A stretch of 64,000 nt of DNA from an uncultured Gammaproteobacteria bacterium (GCA_964498425.1 CAZCGQ010000001.1:163063-227062); one strand, 5' to 3'; positions 3,629 to 56,910 are shown, counted from the stretch's first letter. Numbers and translations are program-made. The notes: a model not told the origin generated them from the sequence alone.

Positions 3629-4768
3629 CTATTCATCGCCGTTATCTTCGCTAATTTCTTCTTTTTCCTCGGAATTTCCTTCTTTATCACTAACATCCTC
3701 TAATCCTTCATCCTCGTCCTCACTCTTCTCCTCAGTATTCTCTTCCTCATCACTAGATTCCTCTTTCACTTCTTTCTTTCCTTCTTTAGGTTCTACCTTT
3801 ATTTGATAGCCAGTTAATTCTCCAGCTAGAGAAACATTTTCTCCCCCATCACCAATTGCCATTGCTAATTCCTCTTCTGCAACTTTTACAACTGCTTTCT
3901 TTTCCTCATCATCAACAGTAACCACTTCTACATCATCAGCCGGAGATAGAGCAGAGGCGATAAAATTATCGGTTTGCTTACTGTAAGGGATAACATCAAT
4001 CTTTTCATCATTAAGCTCCTTTATTACCGCCTGAACCCTTACCCCTTTTTGACCAACACATGATCCAACCGGATCAACCCCAGGCTGGTTAGAATCAACT
4101 GCAATCTTCGTTCGTTGACCTGGACGTCGAGCCACATGCTTAATTTCAACTGCTTCTGAATTCACTTCTGGGACTTCACGTTTAAACAATCCAACCACTA
4201 GCTCCGGTGAAGCTCGAGAAACAATAATTGTTTTTTGCTGTTCGTCTTCGGCAATTTCCTTAACATAAAAAGAAAGGTGTCGTGAAGAGTAGTAGTCCTC
4301 TCCCTTTACCTGTTCGCTTTTGGGCATTTCGGCTTCTGCCTTGCCAATACCAACGATTATTTTTGGCCCCTCATGGCGTAAAATTACACCTCGAACTAAA
4401 GTGCCAACCTGGTCCTTAAACTGGGAAATCAACGAATCTTTCTCTGCTTCTCTGATTTTCTGAAGAATTACCTGCTTGGCGGTTTGGGCAGCAATTCGGC
4501 CAAATCCGGGAGGAGTTACATCCTCTACTTCCCCGTCCTCATCTTCATAAATAATCTTAGTTTCTCCGGTTTCCGAATCCAACTCTATCTTATATTCTCC
4601 TTCTTCTTTCAGCTCTTCTTCTCTCTCGCGCACATCCCGACGAAAGGCAGCCAGTATTGCTTCCTGAACAGAAGAAATAACCACTTCTGTGTCAATATTG
4701 CGCTCACCGGCAATTTGAGCAACCGCAGCTGCAAATTCAGTTTTCGGAATTTTCTTCAAATCAATCAT
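3629..4768 (-). CDS. nusA: Transcription termination/antitermination factor NusA with an acidic C-terminal tail
   Basis: Shows the NusA N-terminal domain and S1/KH regions (MIDLKKIPKTEF...GERNIDTEVV...VGQKGVRVQAV). Sits in the nusA-infB gene order. Confidence 0.9.
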   Translation of the reverse strand: MIDLKKIPKTEFAAAVAQIAGERNIDTEVVISSVQEAILAAFRRDVREREEELKEEGEYKIELDSETGETKIIYEDEDGEVEDVTPPGFGRIAAQTAKQVILQKIREAEKDSLISQFKDQVGTLVRGVILRHEGPKIIVGIGKAEAEMPKSEQVKGEDYYSSRHLSFYVKEIAEDEQQKTIIVSRASPELVVGLFKREVPEVNSEAVEIKHVARRPGQRTKIAVDSNQPGVDPVGSCVGQKGVRVQAVIKELNDEKIDVIPYSKQTDNFIASALSPADDVEVVTVDDEEKKAVVKVAEEELAMAIGDGGENVSLAGELTGYQIKVEPKEGKKEVKEESSDEEENTEEKSEDEDEGLEDVSDKEGNSEEKEEISEDNGDE

Positions 4769-11032: not shown

Positions 11033-11734
11033 TTATTTTTTGCCGGTTTCTAATTTTTTGCGAGTTTCACGAACGGCAATCGCTGGAAGTGAATCTTCGT
11101 TTTCATTAAGGTAATCCTCAACTAGTTGGTGATGTTTTTTAGTCATCTCCCGCAATAACCAGGATATTGCTTTGGTAATCAACTTATCATCTTCGGATTT
11201 CAACCCTTGAATATTTTCTAACGCCAAATCAGTAAGCCGGATATCTTCTGAATCCCGAACCGGCTTAACCAAAAGAACTAATGACGCTCGACGCTTAGAA
11301 ATATTTTGGCTTTGGTTAAACCTTTTTAGCCATTTTTTCCATTCCTGCCAATTATCCAATAGTTCCTGAGCAGTAAAGGTTGATTGACATAATCCATCAA
11401 TTTCCGCCCAACCCTCTAGCTCATCAAGCCATTGATCCAATTTTGCTGGATTAATTTTTCTTCTTTGTTTGGTCATGTACCCAAGAAGCATTCCAGCTAA
11501 AGTTTTTTCATCATAGGATTTGCCTTGAAACAAAGAATTTAGAAGAGCTACAAATTCGTCAACAGAAATATCCTTATTATCCTTTTTCCACGCTTTGGCA
11601 ATTTCTCTTTTCTGGGGATTGGATAAACCATAGTTTTGGTGGCTGCTTCCTAAATATCCTTTCGGCGGTTCTTTATCAATATTATCCGCCACTTTTTTGA
11701 TTTCTGCCAACAATTCAAGATGATGCTTATTCAT
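11033..11734 (-). CDS. DNA alkylation repair protein (AlkD/AlkC-like HEAT-repeat glycosylase family)
   Basis: All-helical protein with an ISWLLREM-type motif and W/K-rich helices typical of the PF08713 DNA_alkylation family. The start is set at MNKHHLELL (11734). The longer ORF starting at 11779 would begin inside a 14-bp palindrome. Confidence 0.5.
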   Translation of the reverse strand: MNKHHLELLAEIKKVADNIDKEPPKGYLGSSHQNYGLSNPQKREIAKAWKKDNKDISVDEFVALLNSLFQGKSYDEKTLAGMLLGYMTKQRRKINPAKLDQWLDELEGWAEIDGLCQSTFTAQELLDNWQEWKKWLKRFNQSQNISKRRASLVLLVKPVRDSEDIRLTDLALENIQGLKSEDDKLITKAISWLLREMTKKHHQLVEDYLNENEDSLPAIAVRETRKKLETGKK

Positions 11735-51273: not shown

Positions 51274-51390
51274 TTTTTCACCCGGAAAGTTAAACTTTCC
51301 CTACGCTTAATATATCAAATATATCTAGGTACAGCAAATAAACAAATTGCATAAACCAACCTGCAATGTTAAAATTAAACCTACGCGGAG

Positions 51391-51481
51391 CTTTGATATA
51401 GGAGGGTTTACCCGCCGAAGCTTTGACGTATGCGGGCTTGCCCGCCGAAGCTTTGTGCGTAGGAGGGTTTACCCGCCGAAG
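51391..51481 (+). repeat. Three head-to-tail 30-31-nt repeats (CTTTGNNNGTAGGAGGGTTTACCCGCCGAAG) immediately upstream of tRNA-Val
   Basis: Direct reading shows exact 30-nt periodicity. Two more copies lie at 51591..51646, upstream of tRNA-Ile. Confidence 0.7.
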
Positions 51482-51483
51482 GC

Positions 51484-51557
51484 GGGCGGTTAGCTCAGTT
51501 GGCTAGAGCGTTTCTTTGACGTAGAAAAGGCCAGGGGTTCGAGTCCTCTACCGCCCA
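51484..51557 (+). tRNA. tRNA-Val (anticodon GAC)
   Basis: Cloverleaf with acceptor GGGCGGU/ACCGCCC, D-arm GCUCAGUUGGCUAGAGC, anticodon stem UUUCU/AGAAA with loop uuGACgu, and T-arm AGGGGUUCGAGUCCUCU. Confidence 0.85.
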
Positions 51558-51648
51558 CCCACGTACCAGTGCAAGCACGGTACATGGCAAGCATCGGGGG
51601 TTTTACCCGCCGAAGCCTTGTACGTAGGAGGGTTTACCCGCCGCAGGC

Positions 51649-51722
51649 GGGCCGTTAGCTCAGTCGGCTAGAGCGCTGTCCTGATAAGACAGAGGTCTCA
51701 GGTTCGAGTCCTGAACGGCCCA
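51649..51722 (+). tRNA. tRNA-Ile (anticodon GAT)
   Basis: Cloverleaf with acceptor GGGCCGU/ACGGCCC, anticodon stem CUGUC/GACAG with loop cuGAUaa, and T-arm UCAGGUUCGAGUCCUGA. Confidence 0.85.
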
Positions 51723-51726
51723 CCCA
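51709..51726 (+). repeat. 18-bp direct repeat, left copy (TCCTGAACGGCCCACCCA, the 3' end of tRNA-Ile): attL-like
   Basis: An exact copy recurs at 55063..55080. An upstream GTTCGAG block is also shared. Confidence 0.6.
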
Positions 51727-51797
51727 TAGTTACAACCGCACTTCCAAACAAGATGTCAAAGGGTGGTTTTAGCCTTGCCTTCCAAACTTTTTCACCT

Positions 51798-52145
51798 TTA
51801 ACAATAAAGTTCAAGAAACTTGTCAAATTCCATAACCTTATCCTCAATTTTTTCTTTCTTTAAAAAGCCGAGTAACATTCCCGATTCAAGCATATTCCTC
51901 GAAATTTTATTTGGTTTCCAGGAGATTATCGAATTAAACACACCTTCGTTAATATCTTTAATCATTTCATTGAATTTTGGCCTGTTATCTGAATCCTTAG
52001 CACTTTTATTCTCTTTATAAGTTTTTACGACCTTAAGACCTAATCTGTCTGCAGAAGTTTGACATTCCTGAATTTGGTCGGTTAACGAATACTCCTGTTT
52101 GTTATCCCCACTAGTAGACTTTCTTGCATAAATGCAGTAAACCAA
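51798..52145 (-). pseudogene. Serine recombinase (resolvase/invertase) catalytic-domain remnant lacking a DNA-binding domain
   Basis: CIYARKSTSGDNKQEYSLTDQ is the YxRxST catalytic-Ser motif. DSDNRPKF...NKISRN is the SG/DRLsR region. The ORF ends after ~115 aa. Confidence 0.55.
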
Positions 52146-52264
52146 ATCTTCCTTGTTGACCTATTTTGACTTTATAAGTTCATTGAATAACCGAAACAAC
52201 CCCCCGTAGTTGCCATTTTTCAATCACAATTTAATATTATTTAATCCTAAATTTTTATAATCTA

Positions 52265-52855
52265 CTAAAAACCTAAGCTGATTAGAGCTTCTTCATCACC
52301 AAGCAACTTTAAATCCCCGACCTTTAACTTAAATCCCTTAGCGTCAGTAGGAACTTCATATATATCAATAAATTCAAAAGGAACGTTAGGATTTAGGTTA
52401 GACAACATGAACAAACTTTTATCTTCAGGAATCCAATCGCTAGCGTCAGGAGCAGGTTTAAATTCCCGGTTTTGGTCATCCATCAAATCTAAGTTGGAAA
52501 CAGATTTCATTTCTTTGCCCAAGTTTTCAACCATAACCGTTACTTCAACAAACTTTCCACTGGCGGTTTTATCCTCAGATAAGGAGGGATATTTACTGTC
52601 TGAAGCTTTTAACACAGAACCTAAATCTCTAGCGTCAACCAATTTCCACTTTACCTCGTCAACGACAACTTCTTCGCCCATCTGATAAATTTTTTCCTCT
52701 TCTTGTTTTCCCTCATCGTTTTTTGTCGTAGTTTGTTCTTGATTAGTTGAAGTAGTAGGTTTTTCCCCTTCGTTGCCGCCTGTAGCCACAATTATTACTA
52801 CTAAAACAACAAAGGCAATCAAGCCCCATTTGAAAAGCTTTTTCACTTTCTTCAA
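52265..52855 (-). CDS. Membrane-anchored secreted protein, DUF4352-like (uncertain)
   Basis: N-terminal TM anchor, then a Thr/Glu-rich linker and a beta-rich domain. Architecture typical of phage/island-associated DUF4352 lipoproteins. Confidence 0.3.
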   Translation of the reverse strand: MKKVKKLFKWGLIAFVVLVVIIVATGGNEGEKPTTSTNQEQTTTKNDEGKQEEEKIYQMGEEVVVDEVKWKLVDARDLGSVLKASDSKYPSLSEDKTASGKFVEVTVMVENLGKEMKSVSNLDLMDDQNREFKPAPDASDWIPEDKSLFMLSNLNPNVPFEFIDIYEVPTDAKGFKLKVGDLKLLGDEEALISLGF

Positions 52856-53264
52856 TTTTGTTCACCCCCTTTCTTGGGAGTATCCATATTTTAGTCTATC
52901 CTTTAGCTAAGGATAAGTCAAAAACAGTTTTAGGCAACCTCTAACGTCTTCAAAAGCCAATTCTTGACAACTAAAATGAAGTCCTGATTATGAAAGGTCC
53001 TTAATATTCAAAAAACTTTGGGTAATATAAGATAAGTAAATATACTTACAAATTTTTAATATAAACAAATATAGCTTACGGTTAATTATTTAACTTCCTC
53101 AAGTAGGTTCCTTGCCTAGGGGCATAAAAACTATTTTGTCTAAGACCAAAATTAACAGTAGTGAATTCAAAAGGTATAGCTCAAAATCGTTTGATTCAAA
53201 CTTCATCATTATTTAACCCTGTACACCTATATTTTTTATATTTCTTTGATATAATTCGCCTAAA

Positions 53265-54620
53265 ATGAGCAAATTGATTATTGAAAAAAACTACAAGGCT
53301 GTAGAAGCTGGCCTTCAAGTACCCAACAATGACTTCAATATTTTCATTGGAGCTAATAACTCCGGAAAAACATCTTTATTAGGAGCCATCCACAAAAAAA
53401 TCGGAAGGGCTAATGCAGTTACAGTTTCACCACAAAGATTCAACATTAATCCCAATCTTAAAGAAGATGACAGGGAAAGGTTTGACGATTACGTTCGAAC
53501 TTCAAAGTCTAAAGGTGCAACTCACAATGGCTCAAATGAGGTAAGCCTTCCCAATTTCATACAATTATTCGCTGGTATGGAAAGAATTGATAGCAACCGG
53601 TTAATTGCCTGGATAAACAACAATTTTCCCATCAACATACTAAGAAGAGAAGATACAAGCAAAGGAGTAACCAAAACAATTCTTGAGATTGATGGACAAC
53701 CACCTGATGTTCAAGGTACGGGATTAAGGTCGTTAATGAACTTACTTTTTCACGTTTTTAGCTCAGATAACAAGGTATTGCTAATAGATGAACCAGAAAT
53801 ATCTATTGAGCCAGAAAAACAAAAAATTTTATTTGATTTATTAAAAAATGTAAGCCAAGGACAAGTAGATGGAGTGGAAAAAAAGCAGATTTTTATTGCA
53901 ACTCACTCTCACCTTTTTTTAGACAGGCAAAAAATAAGTAACAATTATCTGATTACCAAAGATTCTCTAGGAAAAGTTGAAATATACCAACTTAAAACCG
54001 AAAATGAATTCTATACCAAAGTTTTTAGTATGATAGGCGTAACTCCACAAGACATGTTTTTACCTAATAATATTTTAGTTGTTGAAGGTCCAAGTGACTA
54101 TTTTTTCTTGAGAGAGGTAGTGAACCAATTGAATAATACCGGTAAAGTTATTGCCATTCATCACGCAGAATCAGACTCTAGGATATGTGGAGCTTGTCGT
54201 TCAATTGACGATATTCTAAAAATTCCACTTAATCCAGAAATTTTCCTTTACCGAGGCAAACTCTGTGTGTTGTTTGATAAGCAAAAAAGGCAACAATACG
54301 TTGAAGACGCAAGAAAAGCATACAGTGATGACGGTTCACGTATAAGACAATTAACGAAAGGCCCCATTGAGCTATATTATCCCCCAAAGATTGTATCAAG
54401 AATTACTGGTATCGACTCAAATAACATTGAGAAAGCGTTAATGAAATTTGTTAAAAATTGTAAAAAAAGTAAAGATGGAAGGGGCAAATTAGGACAGAAT
54501 AAATTCAGTAAGGTTGAACTGGCTAAAAAGGTAGTTGAAAAAATGAAAGATTCCAATGATTGGGAACTTAACCAAGAAATTGAAGATATTGTAAACAAAG
54601 TAATTAAGTTAGGATATTAA
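53265..54620 (+). CDS. OLD-family nuclease (N-terminal ABC-type ATPase + C-terminal Toprim), anti-phage defence candidate
   Basis: Walker A IFIGANNSGKTSLLGAI, an ABC-signature-like GTGLRSL, Walker B VLLIDEPE, an H-loop ATHSHLF, then the Toprim-like ILVVEGPSDYFFL and acidic residues downstream. Confidence 0.6.
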   Translation: MSKLIIEKNYKAVEAGLQVPNNDFNIFIGANNSGKTSLLGAIHKKIGRANAVTVSPQRFNINPNLKEDDRERFDDYVRTSKSKGATHNGSNEVSLPNFIQLFAGMERIDSNRLIAWINNNFPINILRREDTSKGVTKTILEIDGQPPDVQGTGLRSLMNLLFHVFSSDNKVLLIDEPEISIEPEKQKILFDLLKNVSQGQVDGVEKKQIFIATHSHLFLDRQKISNNYLITKDSLGKVEIYQLKTENEFYTKVFSMIGVTPQDMFLPNNILVVEGPSDYFFLREVVNQLNNTGKVIAIHHAESDSRICGACRSIDDILKIPLNPEIFLYRGKLCVLFDKQKRQQYVEDARKAYSDDGSRIRQLTKGPIELYYPPKIVSRITGIDSNNIEKALMKFVKNCKKSKDGRGKLGQNKFSKVELAKKVVEKMKDSNDWELNQEIEDIVNKVIKLGY

Positions 54621-55062
54621 ACTATCTCACGAGAGAGCAAATTATTTCCTTCTTCGAACACTTATAGTATTAGTTCGAGAAGAATTAAGCTATAGTGTAC
54701 TGGTTAGTAGTTGGATAGGAAAAGCCCTGTTTTTTAAGGTCTACAACTGCCCCGTCAATTCCAATCACTTGAGTAGACGTTAGTTCAATTCCTCCAACTG
54801 TTGAAGTTCCACTTGCCGTAGTCGTGGTTTTTGTTGGGATTTCAATTTTAATAATTTCTCAGTTAGCTTCGCCAAATCGTTAAACATTGTTTTTTCTTGA
54901 TTAATTTTTAACTTTTAAATTTAACGAGATTATATAGAATAACTTTCCCAATAGTTTGCGGTAGGAAGTCTATTTCACCAAATAAATAGGCGTCCATTTC
55001 TTGGTTGAAGTTTTTGATTACGTTAGAATTGTAAAACGCAAAGTTGTAAAGTTCGAGGTAAA

Positions 55063-55080
55063 TCCTGAACGGCCCACCCA
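55063..55080 (+). repeat. 18-bp direct repeat, right copy (attR-like)
   Basis: Exact match to 51709..51726. Confidence 0.6.
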
Positions 55081-55084
55081 CTCC

Positions 55085-55124
55085 TTGACAATGTACAATT
55101 AAAATGTTAGATTAAATTTAACAT
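55085..55124 (+). promoter_or_regulatory. Putative promoter (TTGACA-17nt-TAGATT) with the palindrome ATGTTAG-N9-TAACAT overlapping the -10 and start codon of the antitoxin gene
   Basis: Read directly from the sequence. This is the typical layout of an autoregulated toxin-antitoxin operator. Confidence 0.4.
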
Positions 55125-55368
55125 GAATGTTGTAACATCTACTACACTAAGAAACAATTTAGCCGATGCCTTTAACGAGGTAGCTGAAAAAGATTATCTT
55201 TTGGTCTCCAAAAGGGGCAAAATAAAATCTGCCCTGGTTAATATCAACTTTTTAGAGGATTTATTAGCCCTGGCTAATAAAAAGTATCTAGCAAGCATAA
55301 AAAAAGCCAGAGAGGAATATGAAAAAGGGGACGTTTTTACCCATGAACAAGCCTTCGGCGAAATATAA
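55123..55368 (+). CDS. Type II antitoxin, Phd/YefM family
   Basis: TTLRNNLADAFNEVAEKDYLLVSKRGK...VNINFLEDLL matches the Phd/YefM fold. Confidence 0.75.
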   Translation: MNVVTSTTLRNNLADAFNEVAEKDYLLVSKRGKIKSALVNINFLEDLLALANKKYLASIKKAREEYEKGDVFTHEQAFGEI

Positions 55369-55609
55369 GCTTCTTTATACCAAATCCGCAATTAAGGATA
55401 TTAACAAACTTGATCCTGTCGCTAAAAAGAAAATCAAAAAAAAGATAGAACTATATTCACGAAAGCCATTCAGGCATGCAAAAAAACTAATCGACTCAGC
55501 TTTAGGTACATACCGGTGGCGGGCTGGCGACTACCGAATAGTGTTTGATCGAGATGAAAACAAACTAATTATCCTCTGCGTTGGCCACCGCAAAGAAATC
55601 TACCGGTAA
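55343..55609 (+). CDS. Type II toxin, RelE/ParE family
   Basis: KYKLLYTKSAIKDINKLDPVAKKKI...YRWRAGDYRIVFDRDENKLIILCVGHRKEIY. It overlaps the antitoxin; the start is uncertain (an ATG at 55343 is assumed). Confidence 0.75.
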   Translation: MNKPSAKYKLLYTKSAIKDINKLDPVAKKKIKKKIELYSRKPFRHAKKLIDSALGTYRWRAGDYRIVFDRDENKLIILCVGHRKEIYR

Positions 55610-55686
55610 CCTTTAACTCTTTACTATTAACTATTCACAATACTTATCCGAACATCAGGTCCAAACCCCGCCGATTAAGCCAGTTT

Positions 55687-56910
55687 TTAATTCACCCAAC
55701 CGCCTTTTCCAGAAGCTATTTTCAATTGTTCAGCGGAAATCCTTCTTGCGTGATGACGTTGAACTTGGAGCTCTAATTCTTGCCTCGATAACAATGCACG
55801 CCTAACTCGATAAAAATCCCTATCGTTTTTTATCCCCCAACGTTCTTGCTCCGATTTTAACCTTTTATCTAACTTGGGATACGTTTGTTCATCCCTACTA
55901 AACCGAGCTAAACTAACCAACTTACCAATTTCCCTGTCATCAAGTCCCATAACTCTTAAACCTCTTATCAGATTAAAAGCCTTGTTTGCTAATAAAAAGT
56001 CACTATCATTTTCACTATAATAATCAACAACAAATCTAGCTATTTCATCTCTTTCATCTAGGCTTTTATCACCAAACCCAGGGTTACTAGCCGTTGCTTC
56101 AAAAGCATGAATTTCACCAAGGATTTTATCATTGGTGAAATTTGACCGTATTTTTTTAACTAAATGATAAGTTGAAGCCATAAAAGACAGTGCTGGAACA
56201 AGTCCATATCTGGAAAGAATAGTTTGATACCCGACCGCCCGACTTAGTCCAGGTAAATATAACATTGCTTTTTGCATTTTCGAGTATTGCTTATCATGTG
56301 TCAATTCATGATCCAAATTGAATATCAGTTTTGGTAATTCTCCCTCATCAGCCATTGAAGCCCACATTTCTTCCACCGTTGGAGACTTAAATGGAAAAGC
56401 AGCTAAATCAAGTAACGGTAAATAGACCCCTCCAATGCTTTTCTTTCCCATTACTTTTGCGACTAAGGAATCTGGTGCAAAAAATCTAACCCAGGAGTCA
56501 TATCGACCATTTTCTAAACCGGCAAGAAGGGCGGCGGCAATACCAACATCTTCAAGTTCCTCAAGATATTCAGTTTCTCCTCTTAGCCTAAGAATCAAAT
56601 GATCAAACTCTGGCTTTAAATCCTTAGAAGGAATCCTGGATAAATAACTCTCGGCAATACCCGTCGAAAGTCCAACGGGACGATTTATCAACTCGAAAAA
56701 TTGATTAAGATTATCCCTATAAGCTACTAATTTCTTAATCTCTTGACTACCCGAATCTACTTCGTCAATATCTCGAAATCCGTCTCGTATGTGCGCTTCA
56801 AATTTCCGCTGCATCCACTCTTCAGGAGATATAAAATCGTCTCGATAACGCTCATAAATAACTTGGAGTTGATCACTACCTATTCTTTCTCCACCTTCTT
56901 CTGTCATCAT
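55687..56910 (-). CDS. Hypothetical 407-aa soluble protein with an HExxH motif (possible zinc metallopeptidase-like)
   Basis: The only recognisable feature is the motif NLDHELTHD. No TM helix. Confidence 0.3.
   Translation of the reverse strand: MMTEEGGERIGSDQLQVIYERYRDDFISPEEWMQRKFEAHIRDGFRDIDEVDSGSQEIKKLVAYRDNLNQFFELINRPVGLSTGIAESYLSRIPSKDLKPEFDHLILRLRGETEYLEELEDVGIAAALLAGLENGRYDSWVRFFAPDSLVAKVMGKKSIGGVYLPLLDLAAFPFKSPTVEEMWASMADEGELPKLIFNLDHELTHDKQYSKMQKAMLYLPGLSRAVGYQTILSRYGLVPALSFMASTYHLVKKIRSNFTNDKILGEIHAFEATASNPGFGDKSLDERDEIARFVVDYYSENDSDFLLANKAFNLIRGLRVMGLDDREIGKLVSLARFSRDEQTYPKLDKRLKSEQERWGIKNDRDFYRVRRALLSRQELELQVQRHHARRISAEQLKIASGKGGWVN

Follow-up and report, generated by a model that had tools for sequence, protein, structure and literature searches.

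An islet at the 3' end of a tRNA-Ile gene carries an OLD-family gene and the remains of a large serine recombinase gene that ends inside the tRNA

We analysed a window of 64,000 nucleotides from an uncultured Gammaproteobacteria bacterium (GCA_964498425.1 CAZCGQ010000001.1:163063-227062; all positions are counted from its first letter unless another contig is named), in which an islet of foreign appearance, at 51709-55080, lies against the 3' end of a tRNA-Ile gene. The islet is bounded by two exact copies of the end of that tRNA, its place is empty in related genomes, and the gene at its left boundary is a broken large serine recombinase (LSR) gene whose last codons are read antisense from the tRNA itself. 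We consider it probable, at roughly 0.78, that the islet is the remnant of a small integrative element which was inserted by its own LSR and was then locked in place by the decay of that gene. An earlier reading, made from the sequence only, had taken the segment for a fossilised mobile element with an OLD-type cargo gene for defence, and the analysis described below supports that description, the defence role being what the type of gene would lead one to expect.

The tRNA-Ile(GAU) gene is intact and lies on the plus strand at 51649-51726 (ARAGORN places tRNA-Ile(GAT) at 51649-51724, and the Rfam RF00005 match scores 70.7 bits), its sequence terminates ACGGCCC-A-CCCA, and it is preceded by a tRNA-Val(GAC) gene at 51484-51559, as found by both ARAGORN and Rfam. 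The 18-mer TCCTGAACGGCCCACCCA is present in two exact copies, both on the plus strand. The left copy (51709-51726) would be the core of the left attachment site, attL, a junction formed by the 3' part of the tRNA from approximately the T-loop to the end, and the right copy (55063-55080) would be the core of attR and represent the displaced original 3' end of the tRNA. The repeated sequence comprises the last T-loop base, the 3' strand of the T-stem, the 3' strand of the acceptor, the discriminator and CCCA. With 0.03 matches expected by chance from shuffled sequences, the exact repeat of the tRNA-Ile 3' end that the sequence-only reading had pointed out is confirmed, and the only other match in the window at up to three mismatches is the tRNA-Val gene's 3' end. 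Nor is the repeat a widespread tRNA-derived motif, since the 10 exact matches among one genome each of 185,579 species are all in unrelated sequence and none is in a tRNA. We also considered the 18-mer as a phage attP and rejected this, as its two matches in IMG/VR are both in unrelated coding sequence and neither is in a tRNA. The block GTTCGAG, which had been described as shared, does stand before both copies; in the tRNA the block and the 18-mer lie edge to edge, and in the right copy it is displaced (55051-55057) and separated from the 18-mer by 5 nt (gtaaa). The GC content of the islet is 33.9% compared with 39.2% in the rest of the window, which places it in the lowest 2.3% of equal-sized windows.

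Between the last cargo gene and the right repeat lies a non-coding right arm (54621-55062), which would be the P arm of the former attP. Stop-to-stop segments of this arm contained no Pfam-recognisable coding remnant, in agreement with the approx. 440 nt of ORF-free DNA noted previously. On its minus strand, 54688-54858 is a stop-free stretch of 57 codons, EIIKIEIPTKTTTTASGTSTVGGIELTSTQVIGIDGAVVDLKKQGFSYPTTNQYTIA, with no start codon and no Pfam match, which may be the remnant of a gene.

Two relatives show the same site without the islet. One locus (L014) was found when metagenomes were scanned with the PEGA/SH3 protein, whose gene stands immediately upstream of the tRNAs and which it shares at 97% protein identity and ~80% DNA identity with the window, and the other (L034) by looking up a 78%-identical homologue of the 407-aa protein encoded downstream, a chromosomal flank gene of no Pfam family (55687-56910, minus strand). 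Both loci have the order PEGA gene, tRNA-Val, tRNA-Ile, 21 nt and then the stop codon of a 406-aa homologue of the flank protein, with ~80% nucleotide identity over both flanks, and the 21 nt replace 51727-55686 of the window. Because the tRNA-Ile site is empty in these two relatives, a check that had been set beforehand, the data support the islet as a site-specific insertion at the tRNA-Ile 3' end, as had been proposed. The segment is absent from all three relatives compared, whose flank proteins are 78%, ~78% and 55% identical to that of the window. Measured against the empty site, the additional sequence spans 51727 to approximately 55686 and amounts to 3.96 kb and not 3.35 kb; the extent of ~3.3 kb given earlier therefore holds for the repeat-bounded islet (3.35 kb), but the extra DNA also includes a Phd/ParE gene pair to the right of the second repeat.

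A separate observation comes from a more distant relative (L035; 8737-8857 of Logan SRR7614767_201999), which has a second, partial copy of the tRNA-Ile 3' end between the tRNA-Ile and the flank gene, with no island. This copy begins 8 nt past the first and reads GGTCTCAGGTTC, a 43-nt GC-rich hairpin and then GAGTCCTGAACGGCCCAC. It may be the scar of an earlier integration followed by deletion and, if so, this tRNA is a recurrent target.

The recombinase gene lies at the left end of the islet, on the minus strand, and its visible part is a 115-aa ORF (51798-52145) which matches the resolvase family PF00239 with an E-value of 1.7e-16 over profile positions 3-95 of 145, as the sequence-only reading had anticipated, as well as PHROG 95 ‘integrase’ (E 3e-18), and which has the serine motif YARKSTS. 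A word-indexed homologue search with this fragment returned only itself, and its relatives came from an exhaustive HMMER search, which gave 741 proteins at E <= 1e-10 and in which the best were proteins of 510-590 aa with 44-50% identity over residues 3-103. From an alignment of 30 full-length relatives, with the consensus C-terminus FLNFTVxxxKVxxYxLNxPF…GxxxxxRT, we built an LSR profile HMM of length 543. This profile matched the minus strand of the window twice, with positions 18-129 at 52145-51840 (E 7.5e-52), which is the homologous span of the ORF, and with positions 504-543 of 543 in another frame at 51820-51701 (E 1.5e-6). The second match identifies a C-terminal remnant of 40 codons (51698-51820, …FLNFIVKGEKVWKARLKPPFDILFGSAVVTMGGPFRTRT*) within an ORF at 51698-51847, and the junction between the two pieces lies at 51821-51839, where profile positions 130-503 (~374 codons, ~1.1 kb) are missing and the frame changes. 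By this homology, the gene is that of an LSR of ~540 aa which was internally deleted and not truncated at the boundary of the element. The claim that the serine recombinase had lost its DNA-binding part was thus correct in that the gene is disabled, but its C-terminal 40 codons survive at 51820-51698. The window LSR lacks the recombinase domain, zinc ribbon and coiled coil, and PF07508 and PF13408 are found in its closest relatives; with profile positions 130-503 deleted, the gene is a pseudogene of its family and not a functional member. As neither fragment has a stop codon in its homologous part and the repeat is still perfect, the integration and the deletion would seem to be fairly recent events.

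The C-terminal remnant ends …GGPFRTRT*, with its stop codon (51700-51698) within the T-stem of the tRNA-Ile, so that the 3' end of the LSR gene overlaps the tRNA antisense by 29 nt. Its eight final codons and the stop, GGT GGG CCG TTC AGG ACT CGA ACC TGA, are the reverse complement of nt 75-52 of the tRNA plus part of the T-stem.

The same overlap is present in intact relatives. Among full-length relatives, the closest (P0128/P0277) combines a Resolvase domain with Recombinase and Zn_ribbon_recom domains, and on its contig the stop codon of the LSR gene lies within a convergent tRNA-Leu(TAG) with housekeeping genes (RsmD-like and RecG) directly beyond, the overlap being the boundary between element genes and housekeeping genes. 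This layout is shared by a member of its 90%-identity cluster on six further contigs (at least seven in all) and is the geometry of the window, in which the fragment of the recombinase is directed into the tRNA-Ile 3' end. Other LSR genes terminate inside tRNA-Gly(GCC) (L039 and L040) and inside tRNA-Trp (L048), and every tRNA found downstream of an LSR gene among 78 loci was on the opposite strand. On two viral contigs (L065 and L067), the LSR frame crosses a 32-nt fragment of a tRNA 3' end (T-arm, acceptor strand and CCA) and continues into non-tRNA sequence, and ARAGORN detects no tRNA at the 3' end of either gene; this arrangement fits that expected of an unintegrated attP. The nearest intact relative to be found as an element, at a tRNA-Leu gene (L118), looks small, at ~7 kb and with a PIF1 helicase, rather than like a phage. 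The only word that the region upstream shares with its LSR/tRNA junction is the 10-mer CGCGACTGGA (4594-4603 versus 11567-11576 of that contig), which is not above what shuffled sequences give. As a side observation, this 10-mer lies between host-like and element genes, and the AACC(A/T)GC block that follows it is offset by 5 nt between the two sites.

Universal tRNA bases, when read antisense, force a recognizable peptide on the end of such a protein: Gly, read in antisense from CC and the discriminator, then three codons that are free, one of the form NNG and one of the form RNT, followed either by a stop (TGA from a TTCA T-loop) or by Arg-Thr (CGA ACC from TTCG). We searched the last 45 residues for this signature or what corresponds to it in the two other frames, and found it in 62 of 88 full-length relatives (70%) compared with 49 of 1,760 control pseudo-termini taken from the same proteins (2.8%); with an earlier version of the pattern, it was found in none of 30 members of a different LSR class of ~425 aa. 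Several of the 26 signature-negative relatives are near-misses, for example …CRGERTRTSD. In addition, we observed that five members of the ~425-aa class in IMG/VR (L054, L064, L071, L072 and L107) have a convergent tRNA (Asp, Ser, Glu, Gln and Gln respectively) 95-190 nt past the stop codon, and for this reason the association of LSR genes with tRNA genes may be wider than the clade to which the window's LSR belongs. The tail of a 591-aa relative (P0235), …GRGGGTRTSGE…VGVAGLEPAASRPPALRASQLRHTPLTQ, resembles the antisense of two successive tRNA-like segments, which suggests that the LSR gene continues into an array of tRNAs or a duplicated att site.

Among 50,697 deposited phage genomes, no protein was more than 28% identical to a member of the LSR clade, which accordingly has no characterised member. 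We propose only tentatively, and at slightly less than even odds, that this clade systematically targets tRNA 3' ends (those of Leu, Gly, Trp and Ile have been seen) through an attP that lies in its own last codons, in which case the target could be read from the C-terminal peptide and integration would swap the tail of the enzyme. Serine integrases are not known to target tRNA genes, and a 2020 survey by Mageeney et al. listed 14 of 297 predicted serine-integrase cases in t(m)RNA genes as previously unreported and needing proof (PMC7192596). The premise behind the remark in the sequence-only reading, that serine recombinases are not normally tRNA users, agrees with that survey, but the clade of the window's LSR looks to be an exception. 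In the large LSR survey of Durrant et al., tRNA goes unmentioned, and the literature searched, the coverage of which was incomplete, gave no account of a serine integrase gene that overlaps a tRNA, so that this is absence of evidence only.

The cargo of the islet is as it had been listed, a DUF4352 protein and a 451-aa ATPase-Toprim protein in addition to the resolvase fragment. The second cargo gene (53265-54620, plus strand) is intact, as is the cargo as a whole, and encodes a compact stand-alone OLD-family protein with an ABC-type ATPase and a Toprim/helical nuclease region. Its 451-aa product matches AAA_21/AAA_15, the PADLOC models for AriA, GajA, PtuA, Old and the retron I-B ATPase-Toprim effector (E 1e-11 to 1e-17 for GajA, AriA and the retron effector), in accordance with the OLD-type assignment made earlier, and several PHROGs. 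The ATPase motifs are GANNSGKT (Walker A), LLIDEPE (Walker B) and ATHS (H-loop), and N31, G34, K35, D175, E176 and H214 are invariant in 61 homologues. The best sequence match in the PDB is the Thermus scotoductus class 1 OLD protein 6p74 (E 8e-6), with an alignment that reaches the Toprim VEG motif; the structure model of the 451-aa protein is confident, OLD nucleases are among its structural matches and 6p74 is its best Foldseek match. The C-terminal Toprim and helical region is present, and Pfam OLD-like_TOPRIM, which matches some members of the family, does not match the window protein. Within the family, E274-G275 and E369 are invariant, D278 and K416 are conserved in at least 90% of members and D338 is also conserved, and all of the invariant residues are present in the protein from the window. 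The residues E274, D278, D338, E369 and K416 run in the same order as the catalytic residues E400, E404, D455, E508 and K562 of BpOLD, from the work that also defines the Toprim DxD motif (PMC6755086), and E369 and K416 are candidate equivalents of E508 and K562 by order and spacing only.

Class 1 OLD proteins are those that stand alone, without an adjacent UvrD/PcrA/Rep-like helicase (PMC6755086). The neighbours of the 451-aa gene are the DUF4352 gene and non-coding DNA and, because no helicase, AriB, reverse transcriptase or non-coding RNA is nearby, the protein is class 1 by gene context. An identity as Gabija, PARIS or a type I-B retron was considered and rejected, there being no GajB, AriB, reverse transcriptase or msr/msd RNA in or near the islet, where the only Rfam matches are to tRNAs. 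Neither cargo protein has a close relative in related genomes, the best being 37% identical and in unrelated contexts. Homologues of the OLD-like protein were seen in several settings (L027-L033): in an apparent operon of an N6/N4 methyltransferase, the OLD-like gene, a ResIII helicase and a TnsA-like endonuclease with a TIR-like gene adjoining, a setting that is a defence island; and in a Patescibacteria genome, next to the gene of an RNase H-like 3'-5' exonuclease with which it is fused into an operon. A further homologue (P0016) lies beside a 509-aa LSR in an ICE-like element. Such varied contexts are a pattern typical of mobile defence genes, and we infer that the 451-aa protein defends against phage, its ABC ATPase being expected to control a Toprim nuclease that would cut invading DNA.

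The first cargo gene (52265-52855, minus strand) encodes a membrane-anchored DUF4352 protein of 196 aa (PF11611, E 7.7e-7) with an N-terminal hydrophobic segment. A full-length match links it to the phage family phrog_806 (E 1.6e-25), and it also matches, weakly, two superinfection-exclusion (Sie-like) families (E 4.5e-4 and 5.6e-3), and from these matches it is possibly a superinfection-exclusion protein. The two cargo genes are divergent, and the AT-rich region between them (52856-53264) has promoter-like sites on both strands and matches nothing in Pfam or Rfam.

To the right of the second repeat, and so outside the islet proper, lies a Phd/YefM-ParE/RelE toxin-antitoxin pair (55123-55609, plus strand), in which a small antitoxin ORF (55123-55368) comes first and is overlapped by the toxin ORF (55319-55609). 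The matches are to PF02604, which at E 1.3e-5 does not reach the gathering score, to PF05016 (E 2.6e-9) and to phrog_1213 (E 4.4e-16), and a strong promoter-like site, TTGACA-17-TAGATT (55085-55113) stands ahead of the pair, directly after the repeat. The pair is missing in both relatives with the empty site and in the more distant L035. We also searched rightward of the pair for a decayed third att copy, which would have made a tandem array, and rejected it, since the best local alignment score was 12 and scores of at least 12 were reached in 36% of the background. The pair is not part of the repeat-bounded islet and is either a separate gain here or a loss in the relatives. It was probably already beside the tRNA when the islet arrived, since the displaced tRNA end (55063-55080) sits on its left.

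We can set out how the element may have arrived. The attP would have lain within the 3' end of the LSR gene, bearing an antisense copy of the tRNA 3' end, and the LSR would have recombined it with the 3' end of the chromosomal tRNA-Ile(GAU) gene. The resulting attL would consist of the 5' part of the tRNA joined to an element-borne 3' part that continues into the LSR gene, so that the tRNA would have been rebuilt from element DNA and the integrated LSR gene would be convergent with the tRNA-Ile and overlap it. At the other end, attR would join the element's far arm to the tRNA 3' end that was there originally and to the chromosomal flank, and this exchange would have produced the 18-nt direct repeat. 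The later deletion of ~1.1 kb took from the LSR its alpha-E helix, recombinase domain, zinc ribbon and coiled coil and, with its DNA-binding and synapsis parts lost, the element could no longer excise and would be fixed in place, the cargo being what remains under selection. By this route, the crossover must have fallen within the 18-nt identity. In the model for LI integrase, a 7-8-bp motif for the zinc-ribbon domain lies at bp 16-24 of attP half-sites and bp 11-19 of attB half-sites, i.e. with a 5-bp shift (PMC3783163), and GTTCGAG lies 5 bp farther from the core on the element side than on the tRNA side, which equals the shift of that model. By analogy, the central dinucleotide might be near 51717-51720 (GGCC), a placement that is suggestive only. 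We found no convincing mirror-image zinc-ribbon motif in the other half-sites of the window; the flank of L034 has a 6-of-8 match, off by one position.

Other histories were weighed against this one. A tyrosine-integrase element could have entered at the tRNA-Ile and later lost its integrase, the serine recombinase fragment being unrelated cargo or part of a second, nested element, much as the sequence-only reading had suggested when it offered a lost tyrosine integrase or a recombinase carried as cargo. A block of identity that starts at a tRNA's T-loop and reaches its 3' end is a classical tyrosine-integrase footprint, t(m)RNA genes are used by 44.5% of mapped tyrosine-integrase elements compared with 4.9% of serine ones (PMC7192596), and the islet has no intact integrase of any kind. 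We nevertheless regard this history as very unlikely, as the LSR remnant (51820-51698) runs straight into the att core (51709-51726) and leaves no room for another tRNA-proximal integrase, the overlap of integrase and tRNA recurs in intact relatives and as partial-tRNA attP sites, and no Phage_integrase match was found in any ORF or stop-to-stop segment of the islet. More improbable still is that there was no horizontal insertion at all, the segment being ancestral and lost in the relatives by deletion across duplicated tRNA 3' ends, or the repeat being a local duplication. The short duplication of the tRNA-Ile 3' end without an island in L035 would suit such an account, as would the absence from the relatives of the Phd/ParE pair in spite of its position outside the repeat. 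It is opposed by a GC content below that of 97.7% of equal-sized windows, by an integrase gene exactly at the boundary, by cargo whose relatives are at most 37% identical and in unrelated contexts, and by the lack of the segment in three relatives.

A closer variant of the history we favour, differing in the nature and original size of the element, would make the islet the integrase-proximal stump of a prophage from which the virion and lysis genes were deleted while the integrase remnant and the neighbouring ‘moron’ genes, expressed in lysogeny, were kept. In this connection, P2 Old is a defence gene borne by a prophage, the DUF4352 protein belongs to phrog_806 and is weakly Sie-like, the LSR matches PHROG 95 and the OLD-like protein several PHROGs, and relatives of the LSR are found on IMG/VR viral contigs. 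We judge this variant unlikely, though a good deal less so than the two histories above: no structural, replication or regulatory remnant of a phage is detectable between the repeats, the nearest intact relative has the look of a small PIF1-helicase element of ~7 kb, and, with the att copies 3.35 kb apart, any large loss must have been internal and, except in the LSR gene, scarless.

Several observations weigh against integration by the element's own LSR, and against the further parts of our account, and are to be set beside the evidence for them. No relative of the islet with an intact LSR at a tRNA-Ile was found, and the islet's proteins are known from a single genome. In the available DNA of eight intact relatives (L038, L118, L039, L040, L048, L065, L067 and L120), there is no second att site or tRNA repeat of 11 nt or more, so the intact relatives do not demonstrate that the clade leaves repeats as long as 18 nt. 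When attP is rebuilt by joining the arms of the element, the LSR frame extends by 51 codons compared with 9 codons in L067, and integration would then have swapped the C-terminal tail of the enzyme. The 5-nt offset of GTTCGAG could equally well be explained as a later insertion. The Phd/ParE segment (55081-55686) has no recognisable bounding repeat and is not explained by the 18-nt repeat. Finally, the Toprim DxD motif of the OLD-like protein is reduced to D338 alone, the window having D-K-Q and the family consensus also lacking the second Asp.

The islet can be compared with a number of known systems. Classical tyrosine-integrase islands (P4-like, Islander/TIGER-type) share with it an intact tRNA, a repeat at the far end, a tRNA-proximal integrase, cargo and an empty site, but in the islet the enzyme is an LSR, encoded by a gene that converges on the tRNA and physically overlaps it. 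The serine integrases of phiC31, Bxb1, A118/LI, SPbeta (SprA) and SCCmec (CcrAB) have the same N-terminal resolvase domain with a nucleophilic Ser motif, and their recombinase and zinc-ribbon domains are carried by relatives of the window's LSR. SCCmec goes into a conserved gene at its 3' end, leaving direct repeats of 15-18 bp. The window's LSR differs from characterised serine integrases in its tRNA target and in an attP that would lie in the 3' coding end of the integrase gene, and the copy in the window is dead. In archaeal integrases of the SSV type, the coding sequence of the integrase itself contains the attachment site and integration changes the gene; these enzymes are tyrosine integrases whose gene is split in two, whereas the LSR would exchange only its last few codons and stop. 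The LI integrase model offers a possible likeness in the 5-bp offset of a half-site motif between element and host sites (PMC3783163). Tycheposons of Prochlorococcus are, like the islet, small cargo elements beside tRNA genes with partial tRNA repeats, and 27 of 937 tRNA-adjacent elements are reported to encode an LSR; they differ in host lineage and cargo, and the portion of the text consulted describes no integrase-tRNA overlap (Hackl et al., bioRxiv 10.1101/2020.12.28.424599).

With respect to the cargo, class 1 OLD proteins (P2 Old; 6p74) resemble the 451-aa protein in standing alone, in having an N-terminal ABC ATPase and a C-terminal Toprim/helical region, and in being borne by mobile elements. 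The protein from the window is shorter, compared with 528 aa in 6p74 and 530-640 residues in the PADLOC GajA/Old profiles, its ATPase-domain insertion is short and of low confidence, and it has one conserved Asp (D338) in DxD. Gabija GajA, PARIS AriA and the type I-B retron effector have homologous ATPase and, with the exception of AriA, Toprim modules and are among the structural matches, but their partner genes are not near the islet.

Some further features of the tRNA locus were observed. Both the tRNA-Ile and the tRNA-Val genes of the window terminate ACCCA, so that the encoded CCA is not clean, and the tRNA-Ile genes of L014 (3226-3302) and L034 (2060-2136) terminate ACCA; in the T-stem, L014 has a compensatory change (U-A for C-G), and L034 retains C-G. 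The leaders of the window's tRNA-Val and tRNA-Ile genes (51385-51651) are filled by five copies of a GC-rich unit of ~30 nt (…GGAGGGTTTACCCGCCGAAGC…), the last of each set folding with the tRNA's first bases into a CCCGCC/GGCGGG hairpin. This unit has no further copy elsewhere in the window and is absent from L014 and L034, where the Val-Ile spacer is 25 nt compared with 87 nt in the window.

Genomic islands linked to tRNA genes are a textbook signature of tyrosine integrases. By itself, the islet is an ordinary decayed island, and its interest comes from the mapped attL, attR and empty site that it would provide for tRNA-targeting serine integrases, the evidence for the clade being one decayed mapped copy, intact relatives at different tRNAs, partial-tRNA attP sites and a peptide signature in 70% of relatives. 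It also defines a compact OLD-like family of ~450 aa with a reduced Toprim motif, and it shows a gene of presumed defence function fixed through the decay of the integrase that delivered it. If the proposal for the clade is true, there would be a second and mechanistically different route to the tRNA-island architecture that has so far been credited almost wholly to tyrosine integrases, and callers of tRNA islands that require a tyrosine integrase would miss a class of elements. The target of an integrase would then be predictable from the sequence of the integrase itself, and unidirectional, host-factor-free serine integrases would be available for conserved tRNA targets.

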